Virus record (IMG/VR): IMGVR_UViG_3300028812_000003
Location: 12,515 to 76,514 of that record
Origin: a virus
Direction: 5' to 3' (one strand)
DNA: 64,000 nucleotides
Part shown: positions 2,159-51,612 of the stretch, piece after piece
How positions within the stretch are numbered: position 1 is the first letter of the stretch
Layout: the number at the start of each line of letters is the position of its first letter
Notes under the pieces: generated by a model
Seen by the model: the letters and a program-made list of their open reading frames with translations, nothing else
Told to the model about the DNA's origin: nothing
The model's database searches: none
Program-made: the position numbers and the translations under genes

Positions 2159-3040
2159 ATGACCGTCTACGCGCTGAAGCACCCCGACGGCCGCCGGCTG
2201 TACCACCTGCCGGTGCCGGACGCGTTCGGCCGGCCCGGGTTCACCGCCCGCGCCAAGTTGACCGGGATGTTCGCCGACGGCCGCCCGATGGCGGAGCTGC
2301 ACGGCGACTGGTGGGCCACGGACCGCGAGGCCGTCCGGCTCACCGCCACGGCTCAGCCCCGGCCGAAGACCGTCGGCTACCGGCTGATCGACCCGAACGC
2401 GGAGTCCGTGCGCTACCCGGCCACCCTCACCGTCGAGGAGCGGAACGAGCGCGTGAGGGGCGACGAGGACGCGCTGTGGTCGTTCTACACGGACGTCACC
2501 GAGGAGCAGCCGCCGCTGGAGCACGTCTACGACGGCCCGGTGGTGTTCCTGGAGGGCCGGGAGCCGCCGGCACCTGACGAGCCGCAGTGGGTCGCGCAGC
2601 TCCCGTACATGCTGGCCGAGCGGACGGAGTACGCGCACCTGTTCCCCGGGCACATCCCTGGCCTGGCCGCCCACCTGATGGCCGTCTTCAAGGGGATGCC
2701 GCGCGTCGACTTCGTCTCCCTGAACTTCCAGAACAGGCCCGGCGTGCACGTGAGCCTGTACGTCCCGTACGACGAGCCCCGCACCGAGTGGCGTGCCAAC
2801 ACCGGACGCGGCGGCCGGCCGCTGAAGTCGGGCAGGCACGTGCCGGTGAAGGTCAACCGGCGTCTGACTCTGCCGATCCCGGACCGGGTCGCGGCCGACA
2901 ACTACGCCGAGGCGCTGGAGCAGTGGCAGCAGCAGGTCACCCACTGGACGGGCGTGGTGGAGTCCGTGTCGGTCGCCGCGTGCAGCCACTGCGACGGCAA
3001 GGGCTACGTCTCGCACGGCGCGGAGCAGTACGGCCGCTGA
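2159..3040 (+). CDS. Hypothetical protein with C-terminal CxxCxGxG motif
   Basis: ATG at 2159 after GACCAAGGAACGAGGAACC; ends CSHCDGKG. Confidence 0.8.
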   Translation: MTVYALKHPDGRRLYHLPVPDAFGRPGFTARAKLTGMFADGRPMAELHGDWWATDREAVRLTATAQPRPKTVGYRLIDPNAESVRYPATLTVEERNERVRGDEDALWSFYTDVTEEQPPLEHVYDGPVVFLEGREPPAPDEPQWVAQLPYMLAERTEYAHLFPGHIPGLAAHLMAVFKGMPRVDFVSLNFQNRPGVHVSLYVPYDEPRTEWRANTGRGGRPLKSGRHVPVKVNRRLTLPIPDRVAADNYAEALEQWQQQVTHWTGVVESVSVAACSHCDGKGYVSHGAEQYGR

Positions 3041-3066
3041 CGGCCGGCCAGACTCGCCAGGGTCCC

Positions 3067-3106
3067 GGGGTTGTGCGTCCCGGGGCCCTGTGGTTTAATT
3101 AAATCA
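3067..3106 (+). promoter_or_regulatory. Conserved promoter/operator copy 2
   Basis: TTGTGC (3071) -17- TTTAAT (3094). Confidence 0.75.
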
Positions 3107-3143
3107 ATGGCCGGGTGGACCGGCCGGGAACGAGGAACCGACC

Positions 3144-3731
3144 ATGAGCGCACCCCGCAAGGGCGGAGGCCACAGCAAGGGCCAGTCCATGCCGTACGCC
3201 GTCGTGTACGCGTGGGACGGCGACAAGCCGGTCCGAAACGCGAAGTGGACCCTGGGCGCGGCCGAGGCCGCGATGCTCGACACGCTGCGCGCCGCGAACG
3301 CGCGGGGCGGAGAGCTGGAGATCCGGGTCACCGACCGTGCGACCGGCGAGACCGTGGTGGAGCCGCAGCGCTGCGCCGTGTGCCGCGACCAGTGGGCCAC
3401 CGAACTCGGCCGCACCGACGGCGGGTACACGCTGTGCGGCACCTGCGACGAGGACGACCTGTCCGCCGATGAGCCGGTGACCCCGGCCGCGCCCGAACTG
3501 TCGGCCCCGCTCCTCGCGGCCCTCCGGGCCAAGGGGCTGGACCCCTCCGCGCGGCCGGACGGCACGGTGACCGTGACCACGAACGACATCGACTGGACGC
3601 TGCGCCCGGAGCCGCACGCGGTCACGGGCGAGCCGTGCGGCGTGTGGTCGGCCGTCGGCCCCGTCGGCTCGCGCGGCATGTTCGGCGCGTCCAACGCGGC
3701 GGAGTTCATCGCCCAGCGCACCACCCCGTAG
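3144..3731 (+). CDS. Hypothetical protein with two CxxC motifs
   Basis: 195-aa ORF, CAVC and CGTC, start motif present. Confidence 0.75.
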   Translation: MSAPRKGGGHSKGQSMPYAVVYAWDGDKPVRNAKWTLGAAEAAMLDTLRAANARGGELEIRVTDRATGETVVEPQRCAVCRDQWATELGRTDGGYTLCGTCDEDDLSADEPVTPAAPELSAPLLAALRAKGLDPSARPDGTVTVTTNDIDWTLRPEPHAVTGEPCGVWSAVGPVGSRGMFGASNAAEFIAQRTTP

Positions 3732-3798
3732 ACCTGGCGCACGACGGCCGGGGCACCGTCGCCCCGGCCCCACCGATCACGGAAACGAGGAACCGACC

Positions 3799-4395
3799 AT
3801 GACCAGGCAGACCGCCGCCCCGCTGGAACACGCCAGCCTGAACCCCTCAGCCCGTCAGGCGCGCGAAATCGCACGAACCGTCACCGAGGGGCACCTCCTG
3901 CTCAGCCCGCCGTACCAGCGCGGCAGCGTGTGGACGACCGACCAGCGCATCGCCCTGGTGGAGTCCTGGCTGCGCGGCCTGCCCGTTGGCGTTGTCATCC
4001 TCGCCGACCGGGCCACCGAGGAGTGGCGCACGGCCAACCCCGGCCGCGACCCGTACGAGACGGGCGGTGCCTTCTGGGCGGTCATCGACGGCCGGCAGCG
4101 ACTCACCACCGCGTGCATGTGGTTCGCCGGCGAGTTCGCCGTCCCCGCGTCATGGTTCCCGACCGACCGCATCGAATTCACCGAGGACACCTGCGACGGC
4201 CCGTACGTCCGGTACACCGGTCTGACCGTGCCGGGGCAGCGGATTTTCGCCAACCGAGCGCAGTTCATGGTCGCCGAGACGAAGGCGTGCGCGACCGAGG
4301 CAGACGAGGCCAGGTTCTACCTGCTGGTCAACGGCGGCGGCACGCAGCAGACCGAGGCCGACATGGCCAACGCGGCCCGCGTCGCGGGTCACTGA
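3799..4395 (+). CDS. Stand-alone DUF262 (GmrSD/ParB-superfamily) domain protein
   Basis: PYQRGSVW, VIDGRQRLTT and FYLLVNGGG match the DUF262 QR, DGQQR and FxxxN motifs. Confidence 0.85.
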   Translation: MTRQTAAPLEHASLNPSARQAREIARTVTEGHLLLSPPYQRGSVWTTDQRIALVESWLRGLPVGVVILADRATEEWRTANPGRDPYETGGAFWAVIDGRQRLTTACMWFAGEFAVPASWFPTDRIEFTEDTCDGPYVRYTGLTVPGQRIFANRAQFMVAETKACATEADEARFYLLVNGGGTQQTEADMANAARVAGH

Positions 4396-4415
4396 CCGCC
4401 GAGACGAGGAACGAC

Positions 4416-4667
4416 ATGAACAAGAACCTGCTGAAGGCCCTGGCCGAGATGGAGGACGGCGACGACCGGCCCGGTGTGAAAGCCCTGTCGACGTACGACA
4501 TCCGTGAGTGGGCCGAGGACCCCCACGGGGGTGGTCTCCCCGCCGTCTCCGCCGACGCATTCGCCAAGTGGCTGGACGGAGTCTTCTACGACTGGAGCGA
4601 GGACGGCGAGACGACCAACGAGGACATTCTGAAGGGTGCGCGGGCTCACTGGGTCGGCGAGGCGTAG
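4416..4667 (+). CDS. Small acidic hypothetical protein
   Basis: MNKNLLKALAEM..., 83 aa, GAGGA RBS. Confidence 0.7.
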   Translation: MNKNLLKALAEMEDGDDRPGVKALSTYDIREWAEDPHGGGLPAVSADAFAKWLDGVFYDWSEDGETTNEDILKGARAHWVGEA

Positions 4668-4731
4668 CACGACGGCCGGCCGGGAGCCGCGATCCCGGCA
4701 CCGCTCGCAGGCTCACGGGCCTGCGGCACAC

Positions 4732-4830
4732 GGGGCTGTAGCACAGTCAGGCAGTGCACCCGTGAAGCGCGTTCCTTGGTCGGTTCCCGCGCTCCGGGAG
4801 ACTCCGGTTCGAGTCCGGACAGGCCCACCA
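4732..4830 (+). ncRNA. tRNA-like RNA with extended anticodon arm ending in a 16-nt loop (TTCCTTGGTCGGTTCC)
   Basis: Acceptor GGGGCTG/CAGGCCC + A + CCA; T8A9; D-arm GCAC-AGTCAGGCA-GTGC; T-arm TCCGG-TTCGAGT-CCGGA; CCCG/CGGG stem extended by AGCGCG/CGCGCT. Confidence 0.85.
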
Positions 4831-4866
4831 CCGACAGACCACCGACGACCAGGGAAGTGAGGAAGC

Positions 4867-5535
4867 ATGAGCGCACGAGAGTGGGTCTACGCCCGGTTGA
4901 CCGGGGCCCGCATCAGCCCGGAAGACGCGGCCCGGAAGCTGGACGACTACCACGAGGAAGCGCGCCGGGAGATCCTGGGCAGCGACCTGAACCCCTCCAG
5001 CCTCGTGCTGGACGCGCAGGCGTACCGGCGGCTGCGAGACGGCATCCAGGCCACGATGGCCGACCCGGACCGGTGGGACCAGGACGGGGCTGAGGACTCG
5101 ATCCTGGCCGACTACGTGAAGTGGCTGGCCGACGGCAAGCCCGCGCGGGACGACGGCTGGGACGGGGAGATGCCTTCCCGGCAGACGCTGCCCGACGTCC
5201 TGCGGGGCGCGGCCGACCGGATCGACGCGGAGGACGTGCCGCAGACCGCCGAGGACACGGCCGACTTCTGTGACGGCGCCCGATGGGCCACGGCCCAACT
5301 GCGAGCCATCGCCGGCGAGGCGGACGCAGCGCCCGAGGACATCGGCTGGCTGCCCGACTGGCTGGCGGGGCTGGCCCGGGACCACGCCGCGTCGCTCCTG
5401 TCCGACGACGAGCGCGCGATCCTGCGCTACGCCGTGGGCCTCGCGCAGGAGCAGATGTTCTCGCGCGGTGACGAATTCACCGACGCCGACGAGGCGGCGC
5501 TGGAGTCGCTGAAGCGTCTCGCGGGCGAGGGGTAG
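4867..5535 (+). CDS. Hypothetical protein
   Basis: 222-aa ORF preceded by CGACCAGGGAAGTGAGGAAGC. Confidence 0.8.
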   Translation: MSAREWVYARLTGARISPEDAARKLDDYHEEARREILGSDLNPSSLVLDAQAYRRLRDGIQATMADPDRWDQDGAEDSILADYVKWLADGKPARDDGWDGEMPSRQTLPDVLRGAADRIDAEDVPQTAEDTADFCDGARWATAQLRAIAGEADAAPEDIGWLPDWLAGLARDHAASLLSDDERAILRYAVGLAQEQMFSRGDEFTDADEAALESLKRLAGEG

Positions 5536-12194: not shown

Positions 12195-12599
12195 ATGGTG
12201 ATACCGGTAACTGTCGGCGGGTACGCCGCGTCGGAGGTGCGCTGGCAGGACGACGCCCTGTGCAACGGGGCGCCGCTGGAGACGTTCGTCCCCGACAAGG
12301 AAGACGAGGCCGGTCTGGAGGCCGCGCAGACCTACTGCAACCCCTGTCCCGTCCGGGCGACTTGCCTGCGCTACGCCTTGACGTATGGTCAGCGTGGGTA
12401 CTGGGGTGGTACGGACACGGCGGAGCGCAGGCGCCTGAAGGCGAAGAAGAACCGGGCCAAGTGCCCGTCGTGCGAGTCCCGGAGGGTGGTCGACATGGAG
12501 GAGAGCATGGACGCCCTCTGCCTGGCCTGCGGCGTCTCCTGGCTGACCGAGGCCGCCGCCCAGCCCCGCACCCGGACCACGGTCCGGCCGGTGGCCTGA
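12195..12599 (+). CDS. whiB: WhiB-family Fe-S transcription factor with C-terminal zinc ribbon
   Basis: W..ALC...CNPCPVRATC...GYWGG; extra CPSC/CLAC; GAGGAG RBS before ATG 12195. Confidence 0.9.
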   Translation: MVIPVTVGGYAASEVRWQDDALCNGAPLETFVPDKEDEAGLEAAQTYCNPCPVRATCLRYALTYGQRGYWGGTDTAERRRLKAKKNRAKCPSCESRRVVDMEESMDALCLACGVSWLTEAAAQPRTRTTVRPVA

Positions 12600-34400: not shown

Positions 34401-34684
34401 CGCTGGTCCTCGGTCCAGGTGGCGCCATCGTCTCCGAGGAAGAACAGCGTCAGGTGCAGTTCGTCAGCCGGCTCGCCGCCGGGCACCGCGAGGCGTTCGG
34501 CGTCCTCGGCCGTCGGCATGAGGGCGATCATGCAACCCTGCGTGTGCGAGCCGTCGGCAGCGGCCGTCAGGACTGGTGGGTGCGGGTGAGACTGCCGACG
34601 GACCACGGCCACGGCGTCCGGCGGAAGTTGCCCGCGCAGCAGGTCCCCACCCTCGTTGACTTCCACCTCAGCGTGCTGCTCCAT
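31490..34684 (-). CDS. Multidomain head protein: 2H-phosphoesterase-like + MuF-like + capsid maturation protease
   Basis: ELHLTLFFLG and AAHVCAAY; DSRTCGPC...NACRG; EGIETGDGR, GVSVD, ATLVDIPAF, SGDWR. Confidence 0.75.
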   Translation of the reverse strand: MEQHAEVEVNEGGDLLRGQLPPDAVAVVRRQSHPHPPVLTAAADGSHTQGCMIALMPTAEDAERLAVPGGEPADELHLTLFFLGDDGATWTEDQRDTLESRVRNLVAGLPTVQARAFGAAHWNGGGDYPCWVWSVGDDRDAEPAGGSLVEARVLAGTALTMTMDLPEIPEQHSPWAAHVCAAYSDDPALLPELEQRLGPVTFDRIRLSFGDDDRDIPLSGDAVTAAGGPLRREPTDLELSSRADFASVHAEWEAATAGAVQALKSTTAAWRLDLREQIVKHLAADDPELLPDLTLSTLDATATLTGLMEEYAVKAGRACQREAEAQGVTVPDWSLPEDGDGPDVLTAGVGGRRLLTSVARLTSDLAASALVQAAKRKLSGLLRSSAPAETVAAEVDRELATMDDAGVRASVGSAMTAAQNAGRHAVMEAAPPASTYVASEILDSRTCGPCKVIDGRTFTTLDAAVAEYPVMGYRDCTGARYGNACRGFIVAVWQEVRTATTASGEETGMPWHKVEGHSGCPDGKPWAVVKDADGSVSGCHATEDDADDQLAALYAAEGDSTVTSATETAEALGKGEPNPGTKKDKRLKENQSAAGEEAQCPPGMEPDEESGECVPVGEQKAAGQAEALAHGAAADADRVAGKPAAEIGADGETAPWRGPLTVEGIETGDGREFKADALTWADLPLPLRWNKEDSHGGEPRTIAVNVGRIDRIWREDGGLIMGEGVLDLSTDDGRTVHGKIKGQFLRGVSVDVDSIKDADMELVWPADPDADGEGPDPFDMLFASPEKVVFNRGRIRAATLVDIPAFAEAYIALLGEDGAVVAGGEPIGAVRETRVARFRSLTVQAPQRPPAAWFASPALSVPTGITVTPEGRVYGHAALWGTCHIGQEGVCVTPPHEESHPYFMTGNVWCDDGGTTSVGQITVGTGHAPLSYGHRAAADHYDNTGAAVADVAVGNDAHGIWVAGSVRPGTPESRIHELRAAGQVSGDWRRIGGHLRLVGLLAVNVPGFPVPKLKTALAAGQQLALVAAGIPQLSEGLTEDELDQWAYRRVLTALSRRVHTTEGR

Positions 34685-36509
34685 GACCGCTCACCGCCCT
34701 CGGCCGCAGGGACGTAGAGATCATCGCCGTGGTGTCCGCGTAGGGGCTGCGGCCGTCCAGCACCAGGCGGCCGAAGGCGTCCAGGTGGCACAGGTAGGTC
34801 CCGCTGCTCCCGGGCCGTGCCGACGGGGCCGCCGTGGCGACCGCGTGCGTGAACGGACAGGAGTACTCGTGCTCGCCGCACAGCGCGGGGTGCAGCAGTT
34901 CCCACCGGCCGGCCGCGCCGACCCGGAGCATGTGCTGTGTGCGCGCCTGCTGGACGAGGAGCCGCGCCCGCTCCGCTGCCGCCGCCTGCGACGGGGGCCC
35001 GGTCTCGTCCTGCGTCGGCGGCGGCTGGTCGCCCTGCGGGGCCGGGCGGTCGGCAGGGCTCCCGGACGTCTGCTCGCCCGCAGGCGGCGGGGTGTTGCCC
35101 TCCTGCACTGCCTCGGCCGTGCCGGGGTCCTGCGGGGAGACGGGGACGATCTGCGGGACGTCCTCGCCAAGCAGTTGCGCGAGGGCGGACGCGGCGCCGG
35201 ACGGCAGCGTGCGGATGATGGTCTTCAAGGCCAGGTTGCGCAGCTCGTCGCCTTCCGGCTTGTCGGACTCGCCGAAACCAAGTTCCCGGCGGTACGCCTC
35301 GGGCGACAGCTCCATGCGGTCGTATGCCAGCGTCGCGTTGCCGCTGCGGTCCGGGCGCATGGCCAGCTCGCTCATGTCGTACCAGACGACCCACGCGGCA
35401 GGGTCCTCGCCGGACGCCTCCAGCCGGGGCTGGAGGTAGCCGCGCGTGAGGGCGTCGCAGATCAGTTCCGCCACCGGGGCGATGTGCGTCTTCAGCGCGC
35501 CCTCTTCGAGCTGCCAGGCGCCCCAGTGGTTGACGTCACCCATGCCCAGCAGGATCTCGGCGGGCATGTCCAGCTTGGTGGCCAGACGCTTGATCGCGCT
35601 GTCCCGCTTCTCGATGATCTTTTCGTCGATCTTCAGGGTGAAGTCGATGTGCTTCACCTTGTCGATGGCGTCCGCCGGACCGACCAGCGGGATGGGGACG
35701 ACGGCGGAGGCGGTGCCAGGGTTCTGGATCGCGGTGGCGCTGATCTCGATCCACTCCGCCATGAGCGGGTTGGGCTCGTCGGCGAACTCCTCGCGTACCG
35801 GGAAGGTCAGTTCGTCCGGCAGCAGGACGAGGCCGGCCGACGCCAGGCGGGACAGGTACTCAGACGTGATCTTCCGGTTGACCAGCTCCAGCTCGCGCAT
35901 GATGTCCCGCGCGCTGCGGGCCGGGGAGTCGGCGAGGTGGAAGTACCTGTCGTGCGGACGCCAGACGCGGACGACGTGGTGGTCCGGCGCGAGGTCCCGC
36001 CAGTCCTGGCCGGTGGTCGCCGACTCCTCGTCCATCACCTGGTACTTGCCGGACTGGACGCGGATCTCGTCCACGGACCGGACCTGCCAGCGCTCCACCT
36101 TGCCGTCCTGCTCGCCGACCAGGTAGCCCTCACCGGGGAGGGAGAGCTGCACCGTCAGGCGGCGCATGAGCTGGGCCTGCCCGGCGACCCCTCCGCCGAG
36201 GCGCATCATCAGGTCAGCGGCCGTACCACCGGTGACGATCTCCGGTTCGTCGCTGTCCGGCTGGAGCCTGGCGGCGCGCAGGCGTACCCGGGACAGCATG
36301 TTGCTGAGCCACCAGACGCCGTAGTTGAACTCCCCCAGGCTCTCGTGGAACTGCCAGACCTCTTCCTGCCAGCGGTCCGTGCGGCGCAGGAACTTGGTCT
36401 CCGGGCCGGGTGGCTCTGCTGCGGCGGCCGTCAGCGCCTCGGGCTGCGGCGCGGGCAGCGGGGAGGGGTGGGTGACACCTCGTCCCCGGAATACGTCGTA
36501 CCACGGCAT
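34668..36509 (-). CDS. Portal protein
   Basis: 613 aa, first gene of the head operon; RVWRPH, ADSPAR, DMPAEILLG..NHW. Confidence 0.85.
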   Translation of the reverse strand: MPWYDVFRGRGVTHPSPLPAPQPEALTAAAAEPPGPETKFLRRTDRWQEEVWQFHESLGEFNYGVWWLSNMLSRVRLRAARLQPDSDEPEIVTGGTAADLMMRLGGGVAGQAQLMRRLTVQLSLPGEGYLVGEQDGKVERWQVRSVDEIRVQSGKYQVMDEESATTGQDWRDLAPDHHVVRVWRPHDRYFHLADSPARSARDIMRELELVNRKITSEYLSRLASAGLVLLPDELTFPVREEFADEPNPLMAEWIEISATAIQNPGTASAVVPIPLVGPADAIDKVKHIDFTLKIDEKIIEKRDSAIKRLATKLDMPAEILLGMGDVNHWGAWQLEEGALKTHIAPVAELICDALTRGYLQPRLEASGEDPAAWVVWYDMSELAMRPDRSGNATLAYDRMELSPEAYRRELGFGESDKPEGDELRNLALKTIIRTLPSGAASALAQLLGEDVPQIVPVSPQDPGTAEAVQEGNTPPPAGEQTSGSPADRPAPQGDQPPPTQDETGPPSQAAAAERARLLVQQARTQHMLRVGAAGRWELLHPALCGEHEYSCPFTHAVATAAPSARPGSSGTYLCHLDAFGRLVLDGRSPYADTTAMISTSLRPRAVSGHGAAR

Positions 36510-44799: not shown

Positions 44800-45234
44800 T
44801 CAGGCCCATTCCCGCGAGGCGAGCAGTGCGGCGCCGGCCCACACCGCGCCCCACACGAGGAGCGGCGCCGGGACGCCGACGGTGAAGGCGACGCCGGCTG
44901 TGATCGCGGCCGACAGCCACCCGGACACGCACCACGGACAGGTGATCAGTTCGGCGAGCCAGTGGGGCGACCATTTGGCCCGGCGGACGTAGCGGTTCAC
45001 CCGGCCGTCGAGTCGGGTCAGGGTGCCGAGGGAGGGGTGCCGCACGAACGGTTCGTCGTCCGACAGACCCGGCACCGGGCCCCACTTCTCCTCTTCCCGG
45101 TCGGTGAGCGGTCGCCACCCGCCGGCGAGGCGGTCGCGCAGCCACAACACGGGCGGGAACGTGTCCTTCGCGGCGAGGCGGGAGGCGCGGTAGCTGGCGA
45201 GGATCATGCAGGCGACGAGCAGCCAGGCGGGCAC
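44800..45234 (-). CDS. DUF1360-like membrane protein
   Basis: ELITCPWCVSGW signature, hydrophobic ends. Confidence 0.7.
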   Translation of the reverse strand: MPAWLLVACMILASYRASRLAAKDTFPPVLWLRDRLAGGWRPLTDREEEKWGPVPGLSDDEPFVRHPSLGTLTRLDGRVNRYVRRAKWSPHWLAELITCPWCVSGWLSAAITAGVAFTVGVPAPLLVWGAVWAGAALLASREWA

Positions 45235-45794: not shown

Positions 45795-47990
45795 TCACCC
45801 GATGGAGCGTGTCGCCGAGGACAGACCGCCGGCCACGGCAATGCCGGTCATGGTCGCCTTCACGATCCGCTGGTGCCAGGCCGGCCAGACCATCGCGTCC
45901 AGACGGTCCGGACTCCAGTCCAGCTCGTCGTACCAGGTGCACATCTGGTCTTCCAGCTCCGGGTGCTCCCCCACCATGTGCCACCGGCCCTGCTCCGAAA
46001 GGGCGCTGACCGGCTCCGCGCGGACCTTCTTCCCCCTCGTCGCCCGCACGACCTTGATGGGGATGCGCACGCCCAGGGCGTCGGCCGCCGCGCGGATCGT
46101 GTTGACGGCCATGTCCCCGCCGAAGTTGACCTCCACGCAGATGTCGTCCGCCTCGTGGTCGACGGCGGCCTGCACCGCGCGGCGGCCCCAGCCGTCCGGG
46201 GAGAGGTGGCACGACCTGTCGGCGAGGACGTAGCCGTGCGCGAGCTGCGTCGGGCGGCCGTCGGCCCGCACGTGCTCCTGCACCGCCTTGCCGACGACGA
46301 CGATGCCCTGTTCGCCCCGGCCGCCCGACGGGTCCACCCCGACGGAGATCCGTGCGAGGTCGGGCAGGTCGCTCGGGCGCACCCGGTGGTCGTCGATCAT
46401 CGCGCGGTTCCACAGCGCGTTCTCGTCGGCGTCGATGATCTCCGCGTGGAGTTCCTGCCGACCGATCTGCGTGCCCGCATAGGCGTCCTCCAGCGCGGCC
46501 CGGATGTCTTCGGGCAGGTGGGGGTTGTCGTACATGGACGCGTGCGTGCGCACGACGTTGCCCACACCGCCGGCCGCGAGTTTCTTGATCAGGGCCCGGG
46601 GCTTGGGGGTGGTGGAGGCGATCCAGTGCGGGCGTGGGCCGACGCGTAGGCCGAACCGCATCTGGTCCCAGGTGTCGTCCAGGTAGCGCCACGCGGCCAG
46701 CTCCTCCAGCCACGCAAGGCAGTTGGAGACGAGCAGGCCGCCCGCGAAGAACTCGTGATCGTGTTCAATCGTCAGGTCGTACACGCGCACGGCGCGACTG
46801 GTACGCGAGGACCGAAGTGCACCGGCGCGAACAAGTGCGGGTCGGGTTCCGGCGCTGGCACTCGAACGCGTCGCCGCACACGCCGCACACCCGCTGCTCC
46901 CGTGCTCGTGACGGAGCAACAGCCTCCCGGCAGGCTCCGGGGCAGTACCGCGCTCCGGTCGTCCCTCGGGAGCGGAAGACTGCGCCGCACCGCTGACAGG
47001 TGAAGTCCCGGTATTCCGCGCGGTCCCAGGTTGCCCGGCCGCCCTTACGGTGCCAGTCCTCTCCGCGCTCCTCGCCGTGCTCGTGCCAATGCTGGCCCGG
47101 CGCGAGCAGCACGAAGTTGCTGACCCGGTTGTCCCGCTTGTTGTGGTTGCGGTGGTGCACTTGCATGCCTGCGGGGATCGGACCGACCTCCCGCGCGTAC
47201 ATGTACCGGTGCAGCAGTCCGTGCCGCGTGCTCCGGTAGTAGTCGTCCGGGCCTGCATGCCAGGTGACGCCGTCGTACCGTATCGAATCCCCGTATTTCC
47301 CCATGTAAAGATTGTCTCCGTTGGCTGAACGAGCGAAACCGGCTTCCAGCCGTCGGCCGTCGCCACCTTGTGATCCGGCGTGAGCCACGTGGACCCCGCG
47401 TCGTGGTCGTAGCGCACGACGTCCTTGATGCCGTTGTCCCAGGCCGCCAGAACCTCTCGCAGGCCGTTGCGCGTCCACACGCGGTCCCCGGGCCGGATGG
47501 TCTCGATGGGTCTCTCTCCGTACTCGGTGCGCACCAGGGTGCCCTCGGCCACGCACCGGTTACCGCCGGACCGCAGGCGCTCGATGTCCTCCGGGCTGTG
47601 CGCGCCGAACACCTTGGCCTCGCTACCGTTGGGCCACTTGATGATCGTGCCGCCCTGGCGGGTCGTCATCTTCGCCTCGGGGCTGTGCACCCGCAGGCCG
47701 GACGGGCCGGCGTAGCAGGACGTCGCCGCGTCGCCGAGGGTGGGCGCGATGATCCCGATCCAGTGCGGGATGGGACCGGGCAGGCACGGCGGGCCCATGA
47801 CGTGCTCGTGGACGTACCGCGCGCACGCGTCGGTCTTCCCGGCGCCTCGCCCGGCCAGCAGCAGCCATCCGTACCAGTCGCCGGGCGGCGGGACCTGGTG
47901 GGGCAGCGGAGTCCAGCGCGGCTCCGTCAGCGTCCGCGCGTGCATGAGCAGCTTCTCCGCCGCGCGGCTCCTCAGCCTCGTGTCCGCCAT
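45795..47990 (-). CDS. Terminase large subunit, intein-containing
   Basis: Walker A AGRGAGKT, Walker B WLEE, TTP, VGVDPS, SPDRLDAMVW; start at 47990 or 47999. Confidence 0.93.
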   Translation of the reverse strand: MADTRLRSRAAEKLLMHARTLTEPRWTPLPHQVPPPGDWYGWLLLAGRGAGKTDACARYVHEHVMGPPCLPGPIPHWIGIIAPTLGDAATSCYAGPSGLRVHSPEAKMTTRQGGTIIKWPNGSEAKVFGAHSPEDIERLRSGGNRCVAEGTLVRTEYGERPIETIRPGDRVWTRNGLREVLAAWDNGIKDVVRYDHDAGSTWLTPDHKVATADGWKPVSLVQPTETIFTWGNTGIRYGTTASPGMQARTTTTGARGTDCCTGTCTRGRSVRSPQACKCTTATTTSGTTGSATSCCSRRASIGTSTARSAERTGTVRAAGQPGTARNTGTSPVSGAAQSSAPEGRPERGTAPEPAGRLLLRHEHGSSGCAACAATRSSASAGTRPALVRAGALRSSRTSRAVRVYDLTIEHDHEFFAGGLLVSNCLAWLEELAAWRYLDDTWDQMRFGLRVGPRPHWIASTTPKPRALIKKLAAGGVGNVVRTHASMYDNPHLPEDIRAALEDAYAGTQIGRQELHAEIIDADENALWNRAMIDDHRVRPSDLPDLARISVGVDPSGGRGEQGIVVVGKAVQEHVRADGRPTQLAHGYVLADRSCHLSPDGWGRRAVQAAVDHEADDICVEVNFGGDMAVNTIRAAADALGVRIPIKVVRATRGKKVRAEPVSALSEQGRWHMVGEHPELEDQMCTWYDELDWSPDRLDAMVWPAWHQRIVKATMTGIAVAGGLSSATRSIG
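46722..47555 (-). mobile_element. Intein (278 aa) in the terminase
   Basis: Begins CVAEGTLV; block B TPDHKV; ends VYDLTIEHDHEFFAGGLLVSN followed by Cys. Confidence 0.9.
46765..47304 (-). CDS. HNH endonuclease with Zn-finger tail, nested out of frame inside the intein
   Basis: LHRYMY..GPIP..VHHRNHNKRDNRVSN; CQRC/YC..AC/CGVC/TCSRRC; GGAG upstream of ATG 47304. Confidence 0.85.
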   Translation of the reverse strand: MGKYGDSIRYDGVTWHAGPDDYYRSTRHGLLHRYMYAREVGPIPAGMQVHHRNHNKRDNRVSNFVLLAPGQHWHEHGEERGEDWHRKGGRATWDRAEYRDFTCQRCGAVFRSRGTTGARYCPGACREAVAPSRAREQRVCGVCGDAFECQRRNPTRTCSRRCTSVLAYQSRRARVRPDD

Positions 47991-48102
47991 GCCCGCCATT
48001 GTCGGCTGCCGGGCGGCGCGCGGTTTCCGGAGCACGACGAGGCCCGCACCGGACGGGGGTGTCGGTGCGGGCCTCGGTGGTGCAATGCAGACGGCGGCGA
48101 GT

Positions 48103-49355
<1,253 letters not shown>

Positions 49356-49375: not shown

Positions 49376-50194
49376 TCAGGTGGTGGCCGGCTCGGGCAGC
49401 AGGCCGTGCTCACGAGCCTTGCGCAGGGCGGCGGGGCGGCGGTCGGCCTTGTCCATCCACGCCACGTCCAGGCGCCGGTACGCCTCGCTCAGCCGCGTGG
49501 ACAGGGTCCCCGGATGCATCTTCAGCTCACGTGCCGCCTCGGAAAGGGACGCCCCGTCCTCTAGCGCTACGAGTACTCTCACCTGCGTGTCCGTGAGGGT
49601 GACCGGGTTGGTTCGGACGACGCGGGGTTCCGGCATCCGCAGGCGGAGCAGACCCCGGGCGGCGGCCTCGCGCAGCGCGGCCTCACGGCGCACCGTCTGA
49701 GGCAGGTGGCTCACCCCGAGGGCCGCATAGGCGGACGCGGTGAGTTCCTTGACGACCTTCTGACTGACGCCCCAACGGGTGCAGATCTGCGCCACCGTGC
49801 GGCCGGCGTCGAACGCGCGCAACAGCCGTGTCTCGGCCTCGGACAGGGTCACCCGGCGGTTGCGCAACGCGGCCTCGGTCTCGGCCCGCTCGCGGTTGCC
49901 GCGTTTGCACGCCGCGCAGATCGCCTCGTCCCGCTTGATGTGGCGGCGGTAGGCTGCGAGCGTCCCGCAATCCTCGTACGGGCCGATGTGCCCGGCCAGC
50001 AGACCGTTGCGTACGGCCTGTGCGGCCGTGGACGCCCCGAGCTGACGGTAAATGCGATTGCAGGAACTCTTGACCCCGACGGACGTGACGCCCGTCTCCC
50101 GTGCGATTACTTCGCGGGGGCGGCCGACGGACAGCAGCCACAGCAGCCGGCGCTGGCGCTCCGTCAGGACGATGGGCTGAAGTGCTGCATCCAC
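49376..50194 (-). CDS. Regulator with three LuxR-type HTH repeats and an internal CGT..Y..H..CxxC motif
   Basis: LTERQ, LSEAE and LTDTQ repeats, each ending in Y..L(G/D). Confidence 0.75.
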   Translation of the reverse strand: MDAALQPIVLTERQRRLLWLLSVGRPREVIARETGVTSVGVKSSCNRIYRQLGASTAAQAVRNGLLAGHIGPYEDCGTLAAYRRHIKRDEAICAACKRGNRERAETEAALRNRRVTLSEAETRLLRAFDAGRTVAQICTRWGVSQKVVKELTASAYAALGVSHLPQTVRREAALREAAARGLLRLRMPEPRVVRTNPVTLTDTQVRVLVALEDGASLSEAARELKMHPGTLSTRLSEAYRRLDVAWMDKADRRPAALRKAREHGLLPEPATT

Positions 50195-50344
50195 GGGACG
50201 CCCCTCTCGTAGATTGGGTTGGACCCCGGGCCACGTCCACTGGCCCGGGGTCCTTGTCGACCGGCGACGGCCCGGGGTCGTTCCGCCGGGTCTGGCCGGG
50301 ACACTCATTTAGTTAAATCCCCGTTCCATGGTTTTGCTAAACCA

Positions 50345-51424
50345 TCACAGGGCCAGCCACTCGGGGTTGTCCAGCGACCAGCGCACGGTGGTCTCCAGCG
50401 ACTTCTCCAGGGACACCGGAGGCGTCCAGCCGAAGGCCGCCATCCGCGAGCCGTCCAGGGCGTACCGCAGGTCGTGCCCCGGCCGCGAGGCGTGGAAGGA
50501 CACCGGCTGCACCAGGGCCCGGACGTAGTCGTCGGACAGCCCCATGACCTCCCCGACCATCCGCACCAGTTCGACGTTGTCCACCTCGCGCTCGCCGACG
50601 ATGTGGAACCGCTCGGGCCGCGTGACCCCGTCGCCGTAGCGCGCCGGGCCCATGGCGATGCGGATCATGTCGCCGCCCAGCGTCCACACCTCCGGTTCGG
50701 CCTCGGTGTACCGGCGCGTCAGGTACAGCCACGCGTCGGCGAGGTTGCGCGCGTGCAGGTAGAACCGTGAACCGGGCGTGCCGTCGAGCGCGGTGTGCAC
50801 GGTGATCGGCAAGCCGTCCCGCAGGCCCCGGACGACCATCGGGAGGAACTTCTCGGGGTCCTGCGTCTCGCCGATGATGTTCATCGTGTTGGTGAGGACG
50901 AGGGGCACGTCATAGGTCCGCCAGTAGCTGACGGCGATGGACTCCTGCGCCGCCTTGCTCGCGGAATACGGGTTGGACGGCACGGCCGTCTCCCACTCGG
51001 TGTGCCGGTGGTCGCCGTACGCCGGACCGTACACCTCGTCGGTGGACATCTGGAGGAACAGGCGCGGCCGGATCTCCCGCGCGACCTCCAGCACGTGGAG
51101 CATCAGGGCGACGTTGTTCTGCACGAAGTCGACGGGGTGGGCGATGGACCGGTCCACGTGCGACTCGCTGGCGACGTTCATGATGACGTCGCAGTCCCCG
51201 AACATGTGCAGGGTCAGCGGGTCCGCCGGGGCGCGCATGTCCCAGTGGACGATGTCCACGCGCTTGCCCCAGTCGGTGTCGCACACGGCGGAGGCGACAC
51301 GGGCGGGCAGCCCCTTGTGCCGGAAGGACACCGGGCAGACGATCTCCCAGTCCGTGCGGGCGAGCAGGTGACGCAGGACGTGCGAGCCGACGAACCCGGC
51401 CGCCCCGGTGAGCAGGACGCGCAT
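50345..51424 (-). CDS. rmlB: dTDP-glucose 4,6-dehydratase-like NAD-dependent enzyme
   Basis: TGAAGFVGSH, ASESHVDRSI, STDEVYG, PYSASKAA, RPGHDLRYALD. Confidence 0.85.
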   Translation of the reverse strand: MRVLLTGAAGFVGSHVLRHLLARTDWEIVCPVSFRHKGLPARVASAVCDTDWGKRVDIVHWDMRAPADPLTLHMFGDCDVIMNVASESHVDRSIAHPVDFVQNNVALMLHVLEVAREIRPRLFLQMSTDEVYGPAYGDHRHTEWETAVPSNPYSASKAAQESIAVSYWRTYDVPLVLTNTMNIIGETQDPEKFLPMVVRGLRDGLPITVHTALDGTPGSRFYLHARNLADAWLYLTRRYTEAEPEVWTLGGDMIRIAMGPARYGDGVTRPERFHIVGEREVDNVELVRMVGEVMGLSDDYVRALVQPVSFHASRPGHDLRYALDGSRMAAFGWTPPVSLEKSLETTVRWSLDNPEWLAL

Positions 51425-51612
51425 GGACACCCCTTGTTCCGTGGTCTTTGATCGTGGCGGCAGGGTAGCCACGGACCGGGGAATCGCCGAACGGCCTGGA
51501 AAACGCGGGAACCGCCCGGTGCGGCGCCGGGCGGTTCCAGAGCTGAGGCGGCGTCAGACCGCCGTCTGCTGTGTCGTACCCACGAGGGCGGCGGGCTACT
51601 CCCGAACCCGAG

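Follow-up and report, generated by a model that had tools for sequence, protein, structure and literature searches.

How can an intein be paired with a homing endonuclease that is not written in its own reading frame? The large terminase gene (terL) of a virus found in soil metagenomes raises this question. The gene lies within a stretch of 64,000 nucleotides (nt), here called the window, which covers positions 12,515 to 76,514 of the IMG/VR virus record IMGVR_UViG_3300028812_000003 (76.5 kb, approximately 70% guanine plus cytosine, GC); all coordinates without a contig name refer to the window, and the terminase gene and the features within it lie on its minus strand. The terL open reading frame (ORF; 45795..48242) comprises 815 codons counted from the first TTG, its true start being uncertain, and runs uninterrupted through a class-1 intein of 278 amino acids (46722..47555). 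Inside the intein, a gene for an HNH protein (46765..47304) is read in another frame, with each of its codons beginning at the third base of an intein codon. The sequence comparisons presented here argue that the locus is, in all probability, a composite mobile element, formed by a terL intein and, nested within it in a different frame, the gene for its homing endonuclease, which is initiated separately.

Splicing parts and linker of the intein

The initial annotation of the window, made from the sequence alone, described an intein with intact splicing blocks and a central region of low complexity lacking an endonuclease motif, and both descriptions hold. The intein extends from Cys1 to Asn278 and separates GGNR from the CLAWLEE strand of the terminase; the latter is predicted to be the Walker B strand and the GGNR side the arginine-finger region. 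Block A contains Cys1 in the motif CVAEG, block B reads TPDH at residues 59-62, and block F/G reads VYDLTIEHDHEFFAGGLLVSN and is followed by Cys+1. Cys1 is invariant in nine relatives, T59 and H62 are invariant in the relatives as well, and the aligned relatives share an invariant VYDLT..EF..LV.N in the C-terminal splicing part. The N-terminal splicing part, with blocks A and B (residues 1-87, 47295..47555), is under purifying selection in the terminase frame. The C-terminal part, with blocks F and G (residues 241-278, 46722..46835), consists of beta strands and ends in LLVSN, directly before the Cys+1 codon of the C-extein (46719..46721), which is present in intein-less alleles too. The linker between the two parts (residues 88-240, 46836..47294) is rich in T, G, A, R and S, predicted to be disordered, free of stop codons and unconstrained in sequence.

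A Pfam search with the intein-frame product gave matches to Hint and intein-splicing families at both ends only, and none to a nuclease. The AlphaFold model shows the same division, with pLDDT values (predicted local distance difference test) of about 76-94 for residues 1-87 and 241-278 (around 90 for 1-87) and of about 30 for residues 88-236. Foldseek paired the model with the mini-inteins of Mtu RecA (2in8), DnaX and NpuDnaB (4o1r), at expect (E) values near 1e-6 and template modelling (TM) scores of 0.75-0.79 on the target; as modelled, the two ends form the Hint domain of a mini-intein. The host gene of a split intein is broken into two ORFs, whereas terL is a single one. From its sequence features, the terL precursor would be expected to splice and to yield an active terminase.

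The nested HNH gene

The same annotation had placed a protein of 179 amino acids with an HNH motif and zinc fingers at 47304-46765, preceded by a GGAG and starting with its own ATG, and had described both frames as stop-free over these 540 nt. The ORF reading bears this out; the gene encodes 179 residues followed by TGA. Its product matches the Pfam family HNH_3 (PF13392) at E=3.4e-13 and 49.4 bits, compared with a curated cut-off of 24.8, and its AlphaFold model has a mean pLDDT of 84.8. The best solved structural match is the homing endonuclease I-HmuI (1u3e), at a moderate Z of 7.2 and a root-mean-square deviation of 3.0 over 74 residues, the next match reaching 4.3. The catalytic core occupies residues 31-76 (47077..47214), with the Pfam match spanning residues 31-67, and is followed by two CxxC...CxxxC zinc ribbons (46819..46998) formed by C103/C106/C121/C125 and C140/C143/C158/C162; residues 132-179 also gave structural matches to zinc fingers. 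In an alignment of 40 homologues, H51, N59, N63, H72 and H76 are invariant, as are all eight cysteines of the ribbons. True dual coding is confined to approximately 24 codons at the C-terminus of the HNH protein (46765..46835), where its C-terminal helix and tail (..RVRPDD, then the stop) lie over the strands with which the C-terminal splicing part begins (..RVYDLTIE).

Distribution of the two-frame layout

With the HNH protein and the terminase as queries, 42 related terL loci were retrieved from viral contigs. The single HNH protein gave no matches when compared with the genome collection; an alignment used as query did retrieve loci. At the insertion site of the window intein (site A), inteins with an HNH gene in the same relative frame occur in loci L004 (on the same contig as L002), L005, L006, L036 and L043. 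A second site (site B), after C-extein residue 276 of the query, is occupied in L028 and L030-L034 by an intein of only 28% identity, with an HNH protein of 26% identity at the same offset; examples are L028:1859-2833 and L030:2928-3902, whose out-of-frame HNH genes encode 223-229 amino acids. The site-B intein of L030 is followed by Ser, not Cys, and its block F differs (VEEVPEFF). No stop interrupts the terminase frame within the intein in any site-A or site-B relative from viral contigs. A third site is represented by the related terminase L039:1429-3849, in which the P-loop is interrupted between AGRG and SGKT by an intein beginning with CIAPW and ending in HHN. This intein contains, at L039:1778-2491 on the minus strand, an antisense ORF for 237 amino acids with an HNH motif. 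Inteins thus occupy at least three sites in this terminase family, and the nuclease genes nested in them differ in orientation.

The same two-frame layout was found in at least 17 other loci. Cultured phages which carry it are Tetrasphaera phage TJE1 and Acinetobacter phage Highwayman (39-40% GC), both in terL, and Rhodobacteraceae phage MD07; it is also present in a prophage of Streptomyces caniscabiei, and in metagenome-assembled genomes (MAGs) of Firmicutes, Chloroflexi, an actinomycete, a betaproteobacterium and a spirochaete. A Peribacteria MAG (L057) employs the other frame offset.

One site-A intein, L005:2023-2646, has a nested gene that lacks the N-terminal catalytic half, leaving a remnant of 109 amino acids which consists of the two zinc ribbons only. 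The remnant gene keeps its ATG, with TAGTGT at -12..-7, and the extein of L005 is almost identical to that of the intein-less L037. Loss of the catalytic half is what is expected late in the homing cycle.

Selection in each frame

Estimation of the ratio of non-synonymous to synonymous substitution rates (dN/dS) for each frame had been proposed with the annotation as a check, and was performed here in ten pairwise comparisons among five site-A elements. The HNH frame gave values of 0.16-0.50, the lowest being that against the closest relative, while the intein frame gave 0.86-1.41 in the overlap and the third, non-coding frame 0.99-2.37. Alignment of the intein with that of L002, a 90%-identical relative, contains no indels. 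The 53 differences in the overlap fall at HNH codon positions 1, 2 and 3 in the proportion 12/5/36, and the 28 differences in the N-terminal splicing part fall as 5/2/21 by codon position of the terminase frame. Together with the invariant residues, the dN/dS pattern indicates that the DNA between the splicing parts is the HNH gene, and that the intein frame is constrained only against stops. In these alignments, protein-level selection in the overlap acts on the HNH frame only, and the approximately 150 residues between the splicing parts result from reading the HNH gene in the wrong frame and are unselected and, by prediction, disordered.

The openness of the intein frame was evaluated by resampling synonymous codons of the HNH ORF (about 68% GC) and recording the fraction of trials in which the intein frame was open. 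For the window alone, this fraction was 10% with the codons of the ORF itself and 32% with extein codon usage, and the open frame is therefore not significant in this single element, but it is significant across the family. The host frame is open in all ten elements tested, with P ~0.0008 in Highwayman (39% GC) and P of 0.03-0.17 in several others, and the resampling results of the elements taken together indicate that selection keeps the host frame open. The offset in use costs the host frame 0.4-5.6 expected stops, compared to 2.5-36 for the other offset, which accounts for its recurrence.

These results bear on the possibility that the HNH frame is a decaying relic, whereby an intein with an ancestral in-frame HNH domain underwent two compensating frameshifts and now persists as a mini-intein with a junk linker, the nuclease no longer being made. 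Decay does occur in the family, as the loss of the catalytic half in L005 demonstrates, and the open intein frame of the window, considered alone, could be due to chance (P 0.1-0.3). Such a history is nonetheless very unlikely in view of the purifying selection that continues to act on the HNH frame, where third positions account for 36 of the 53 differences and dN/dS is lowest against the closest relative, the invariance of the catalytic His and Asn residues and of the eight cysteines in the 40 homologues, and the conservation across phyla of the HNH start codon and its start signals (see below). No in-frame version was found either: a search for longer in-frame HNH relatives gave one match, which proved to be no more than the same ORF with wrong-frame sequence added upstream, although this is weak evidence of absence.

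Mobility and origin

When mapped onto a tree built from 43 extein sequences, the site-A inteins, seven in number, require seven gains or losses, at least four of which are forced by well-supported branches, and the nearest extein relative of each bearer is intein-less. In 11 alleles without the intein, the insertion site, GGNR followed by C(L/V)xW(L/A)EE, is intact. Three complete intein-less relatives (92-93 kb, with terminases approximately 85-89% identical) contain no HNH homologue anywhere in their genomes. The scattered occurrence of the intein on the extein tree, together with these relatives, indicates the behaviour of a selfish homing element.

HNH proteins assist the terminases of some cos phages, and the nested HNH protein might likewise be a packaging accessory merely lodged in terL, rather than a homing enzyme. 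The positions of free-standing homologues are in keeping with this proposal, for they adjoin terminase genes: between terL and the portal gene in Sphaerotilus phage SN1 and Pseudomonas phage PAE1, and upstream of terS in Acinetobacter phage BP10. A role in packaging is nevertheless very unlikely, given that the complete intein-less relatives dispense with the protein, that a search of this phage record with the general Pfam HNH profile (PF01844) gave no other match, that the presence of HNH tracks the intein and not the phage phylogeny, and that among solved structures a homing endonuclease comes closest.

The initial annotation had further suggested that a free-standing homing endonuclease invaded a mini-intein and is expressed independently. 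The comparison supports the second element of this proposal, namely a separate gene with its own initiation; the invasion step itself is a matter of inference. The free-standing homologues fit an origin from a free-standing nuclease gene and leave the direction of the event unproven. The composite is common to bacterial phyla and to three terminase insertion sites, and any invasion must thus have occurred long ago and not recently in this phage.

Start signals of the HNH gene

All members of the family have an ATG, or in Highwayman a GTG, some 10 codons ahead of a conserved Y/F-D/N-G-V/I motif, and in most of them a stop codon occurs in the HNH frame 3-16 codons upstream of this start. In the window, the start is preceded at 47311..47319 by GGAG at -15..-12 from the ATG, overlapping the hexamer GACAAT at -12..-7. 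Element copies are not mutually independent, a restriction that applies to the following counts: at -12..-7, seven of the ten actinobacterial elements have TANNNT (TACAGT, TACAAT, TAGAAT, TAGACT, TAGTGT or TACATT), the remaining ones having GACAAT (the window and L004) or AACAGT (L036), and at the same positions GGAGGG, GGAGAA, GGAGGT, AGGTGT or CAAGGA is found in five of the eight non-actinobacterial elements. Across these terminase genes, the background frequency of TANNNT is 0.08% of positions, and the hexamer is made of GAT and ACA codons, each of which represents about 5% of the extein Asp and Thr codons, respectively. A -10 hexamer so placed would, in an actinobacterial promoter, set the transcription start on the ATG itself and give a leaderless mRNA. 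A scan of positions 46600-47700 for E. coli-type promoters and terminators found nothing, the consensus used being one that excludes actinobacterial promoters with a -10 element only. The conserved start codon and the start signals point to independent initiation, not frameshifting, and the HNH protein is presumably made separately from its own ATG at 47304.

Programmed -1 frameshifting would provide another route into the HNH frame, by which ribosomes translating terL would produce a fusion of N-extein, N-terminal intein part and HNH, or an in-frame intein after a second shift. In the window and in L004, a slippery-type heptamer, G_GGA_AAT, coincides exactly with the HNH start, and the HNH gene is in the -1 frame in most members. 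The heptamer, however, is shared by the window with L004 only, being absent from L006, L036, L043, L028, L030 and the more distant members, whereas the ATG or GTG is conserved; the upstream stop leaves almost no room for a shift site in most copies; the Peribacteria MAG and Brucella phage Tb use the other frame; and no signal for a return shift is evident. The bias in frame is explained more simply by the smallest number of host-frame stops. Frameshifting is thus unsupported and highly improbable.

It can be proposed, more tentatively, that overprinting is both ancestral and stable in a large family of terL inteins found across phyla, and that the start signals of their nuclease genes are host-adapted and embedded in the intein codons, with a -10 hexamer and a leaderless mRNA in Actinobacteria and a Shine-Dalgarno sequence elsewhere. 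If this were the case, production of the endonuclease would be uncoupled, both in time and in amount, from the late expression of the terminase.

The suspicion that two compensating indel errors had put an in-frame HNH out of frame, which the annotation had suggested checking against reads, can be rejected: high-GC metagenome assemblies can carry indels, but no specific support for them was found here, a 4.4-kb contig from soil run X10 (flagged as a possible source of the record) covers 46400-47312 without any difference, exact-match contigs from the unflagged soil run X11 (46627-46777 and 47072-47394) span both frame junctions, neither of which shows an indel, and more than 15 independent assemblies, cultured phages included, agree in the frame offset. 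Run X11 also contains a contig of 151 nt and 2x depth with a 3-nt GCT insertion in intein block F/G, at window position 46744, which is probably a related allele in the same soil.

Proposed mechanism

In the mechanism envisaged for the composite element, translation of terL runs straight through the intein, and splicing of the resulting precursor would release the active terminase. The HNH protein would be translated either from the terL mRNA, by means of the GGAG, or from a short leaderless transcript initiated at the -10-like hexamer. It would then cut an intein-less terL at the conserved GGNR-CLAWLEE site, and repair of the break would copy the intein and the HNH gene together.

Several observations weigh against this interpretation. 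The penultimate residue of the intein is Ser277, as originally annotated, in place of the His of block G. His is common at this position but not universal, and among eight aligned relatives Ser occurs in six, with Ala in L051 and His in the site-B lineage; judging from this alignment, Ser is a trait of the family and no defect of the window copy. The start signals of the window are also not strong, the hexamer being imperfect (GACAAT) and the GGAG standing 11 nt from the ATG. Moreover, the conserved hexamer overlaps conserved intein codons (D/E-T-I/V), and part of its conservation could therefore act at the level of the protein. Finally, the HNH dN/dS values of 0.3-0.5 in deeper comparisons reflect only moderate constraint.

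Relation to known systems

The layout itself is not new, having been published in 2025 for nucleases resembling endonuclease VII and having been annotated in Brucella phage Tb. Inteins with the endonuclease in a separate frame were described by Gosselin, Arsenault & Gogarten (bioRxiv 10.1101/2025.01.02.630785), who proposed their origin through invasion by a free-standing nuclease gene. The window element resembles theirs in that a contiguous terL intein holds a nuclease ORF in its endonuclease slot, on the same strand and in the same relative frame, with an unstructured centre in the intein frame and a sporadic distribution among close extein alleles. The two differ, however, in the nuclease, which is Endonuclease_7-like in their system (the only out-of-frame type there) and in the present one an I-HmuI-like HNH_3 protein with two zinc ribbons, these being different His-Me families; the nested ORF of Keitabear terL is of the Endonuclease_7 type and has no detectable similarity to the window HNH. 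They also differ in the terminase, PF04466 in their case and Terminase_6N/6C in the present one, and in distribution, as the family described here extends well beyond Actinobacteria.

In Brucella phage Tb (NC_019446), the terL coding sequence (2347..4893) is annotated as "intein present" and a nested coding sequence (3170..3856) as "putative HNH endonuclease", and the nesting was confirmed. As in the window, a complete HNH gene lies out of frame on the same strand within an intein-bearing terL, the Tb copy following a Shine-Dalgarno motif. Yet the offset in Tb is +1 and its domain order is reversed, with the zinc fingers first and the HNH last; similarity between the two HNH proteins is weak (E ~1e-4) and restricted to the HNH motif.

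A further parallel is the ShiLan-type hidden HNH, an out-of-frame gene in a mycobacteriophage DNA methylase, for which the question of translation was raised and leaderless initiation proposed (Arsenault, Gosselin & Gogarten 2025, PMC11855218). There, too, the HNH gene lies within a host ORF that stays open, but without flanking splicing domains, so that the host protein keeps an extra loop, whereas the gene in the window is bounded by intact intein blocks. Inteins split into halves, with a free-standing endonuclease gene lying between them, are known as "fractured genes" (Dassa et al. 2009, PMC2677866). Both these and the antisense LAGLIDADG, VSR and HNH genes within inteins have the endonuclease as a separate gene in the endonuclease slot of the intein; in contrast, the host gene of the window is unbroken, with the nuclease encoded on its sense strand. 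I-HmuI, an HNH homing and nicking endonuclease of Bacillus phage SPO1 and the best structural match, is of the same HNH_3 Pfam family type, yet it shares only 16% identity with the window protein and resides in a group I intron; in the window protein, two zinc ribbons form the DNA-binding extension. A preprint of 2026 reportedly deals, according to its title, with an out-of-frame endonuclease in a cyanobacterial dnaX intein.

What the present work adds is a different nuclease family with a very wide distribution, together with the analysis of selection and the host-specific start signals. The comparison implies that for a long evolutionary time one stretch of DNA can house an intein and its homing endonuclease as separate genes, and this long coexistence supports the view that in the origin of inteins the splicing domain came first and the nuclease invaded later. 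The start signals, TANNNT at -12..-7 or Shine-Dalgarno, offer a concrete and testable answer to the question of hidden-frame expression raised in the 2025 papers. Gene callers report only the long ORF, and nested nucleases consequently go unannotated, while the centre of the intein looks like low-complexity junk.

Terminase gene, host and neighbouring genes

The product of the terL ORF matches the Pfam families Terminase_6N, Terminase_6C and Hint_2. Its closest cultured relatives are the terminases of Streptomyces phages mu1/6 and OnionKnight, at 45-47% identity, and homologues of the nested HNH are present in a Streptomyces sp. chromosome and in S. caniscabiei. The DNA of the window is present in soil metagenome runs; none of the runs listed with it is an RNA run. 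On these sequence relationships, the host of the phage is probably an actinobacterium such as Streptomyces.

Directly upstream of terL, at 48300-49343 on the minus strand, lies a gene for a protein of 347 amino acids with Rpf-like transglycosylase, NlpC/P60 and LysM domains, likely a lysin or cell-wall hydrolase; the relative L002 has the same gene order. Farther upstream of the packaging genes and on the same strand are a gene for a protein of 310 amino acids with repeated helix-turn-helix units of the LuxR/GerE type (49376-50308) and one for an NAD-dependent sugar epimerase/dehydratase (50345-51472), the latter being unusual cargo for a phage head module. The sole portal-like match, to Pfam Phage_portal and under the curated cut-off, is at 34668-36509 on the minus strand, at a distance of approximately 9 kb on the downstream side of terL. 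The intervening stretch encodes small membrane proteins, among them a DUF1360 protein at 44800-45234, and the packaging module is therefore not contiguous.

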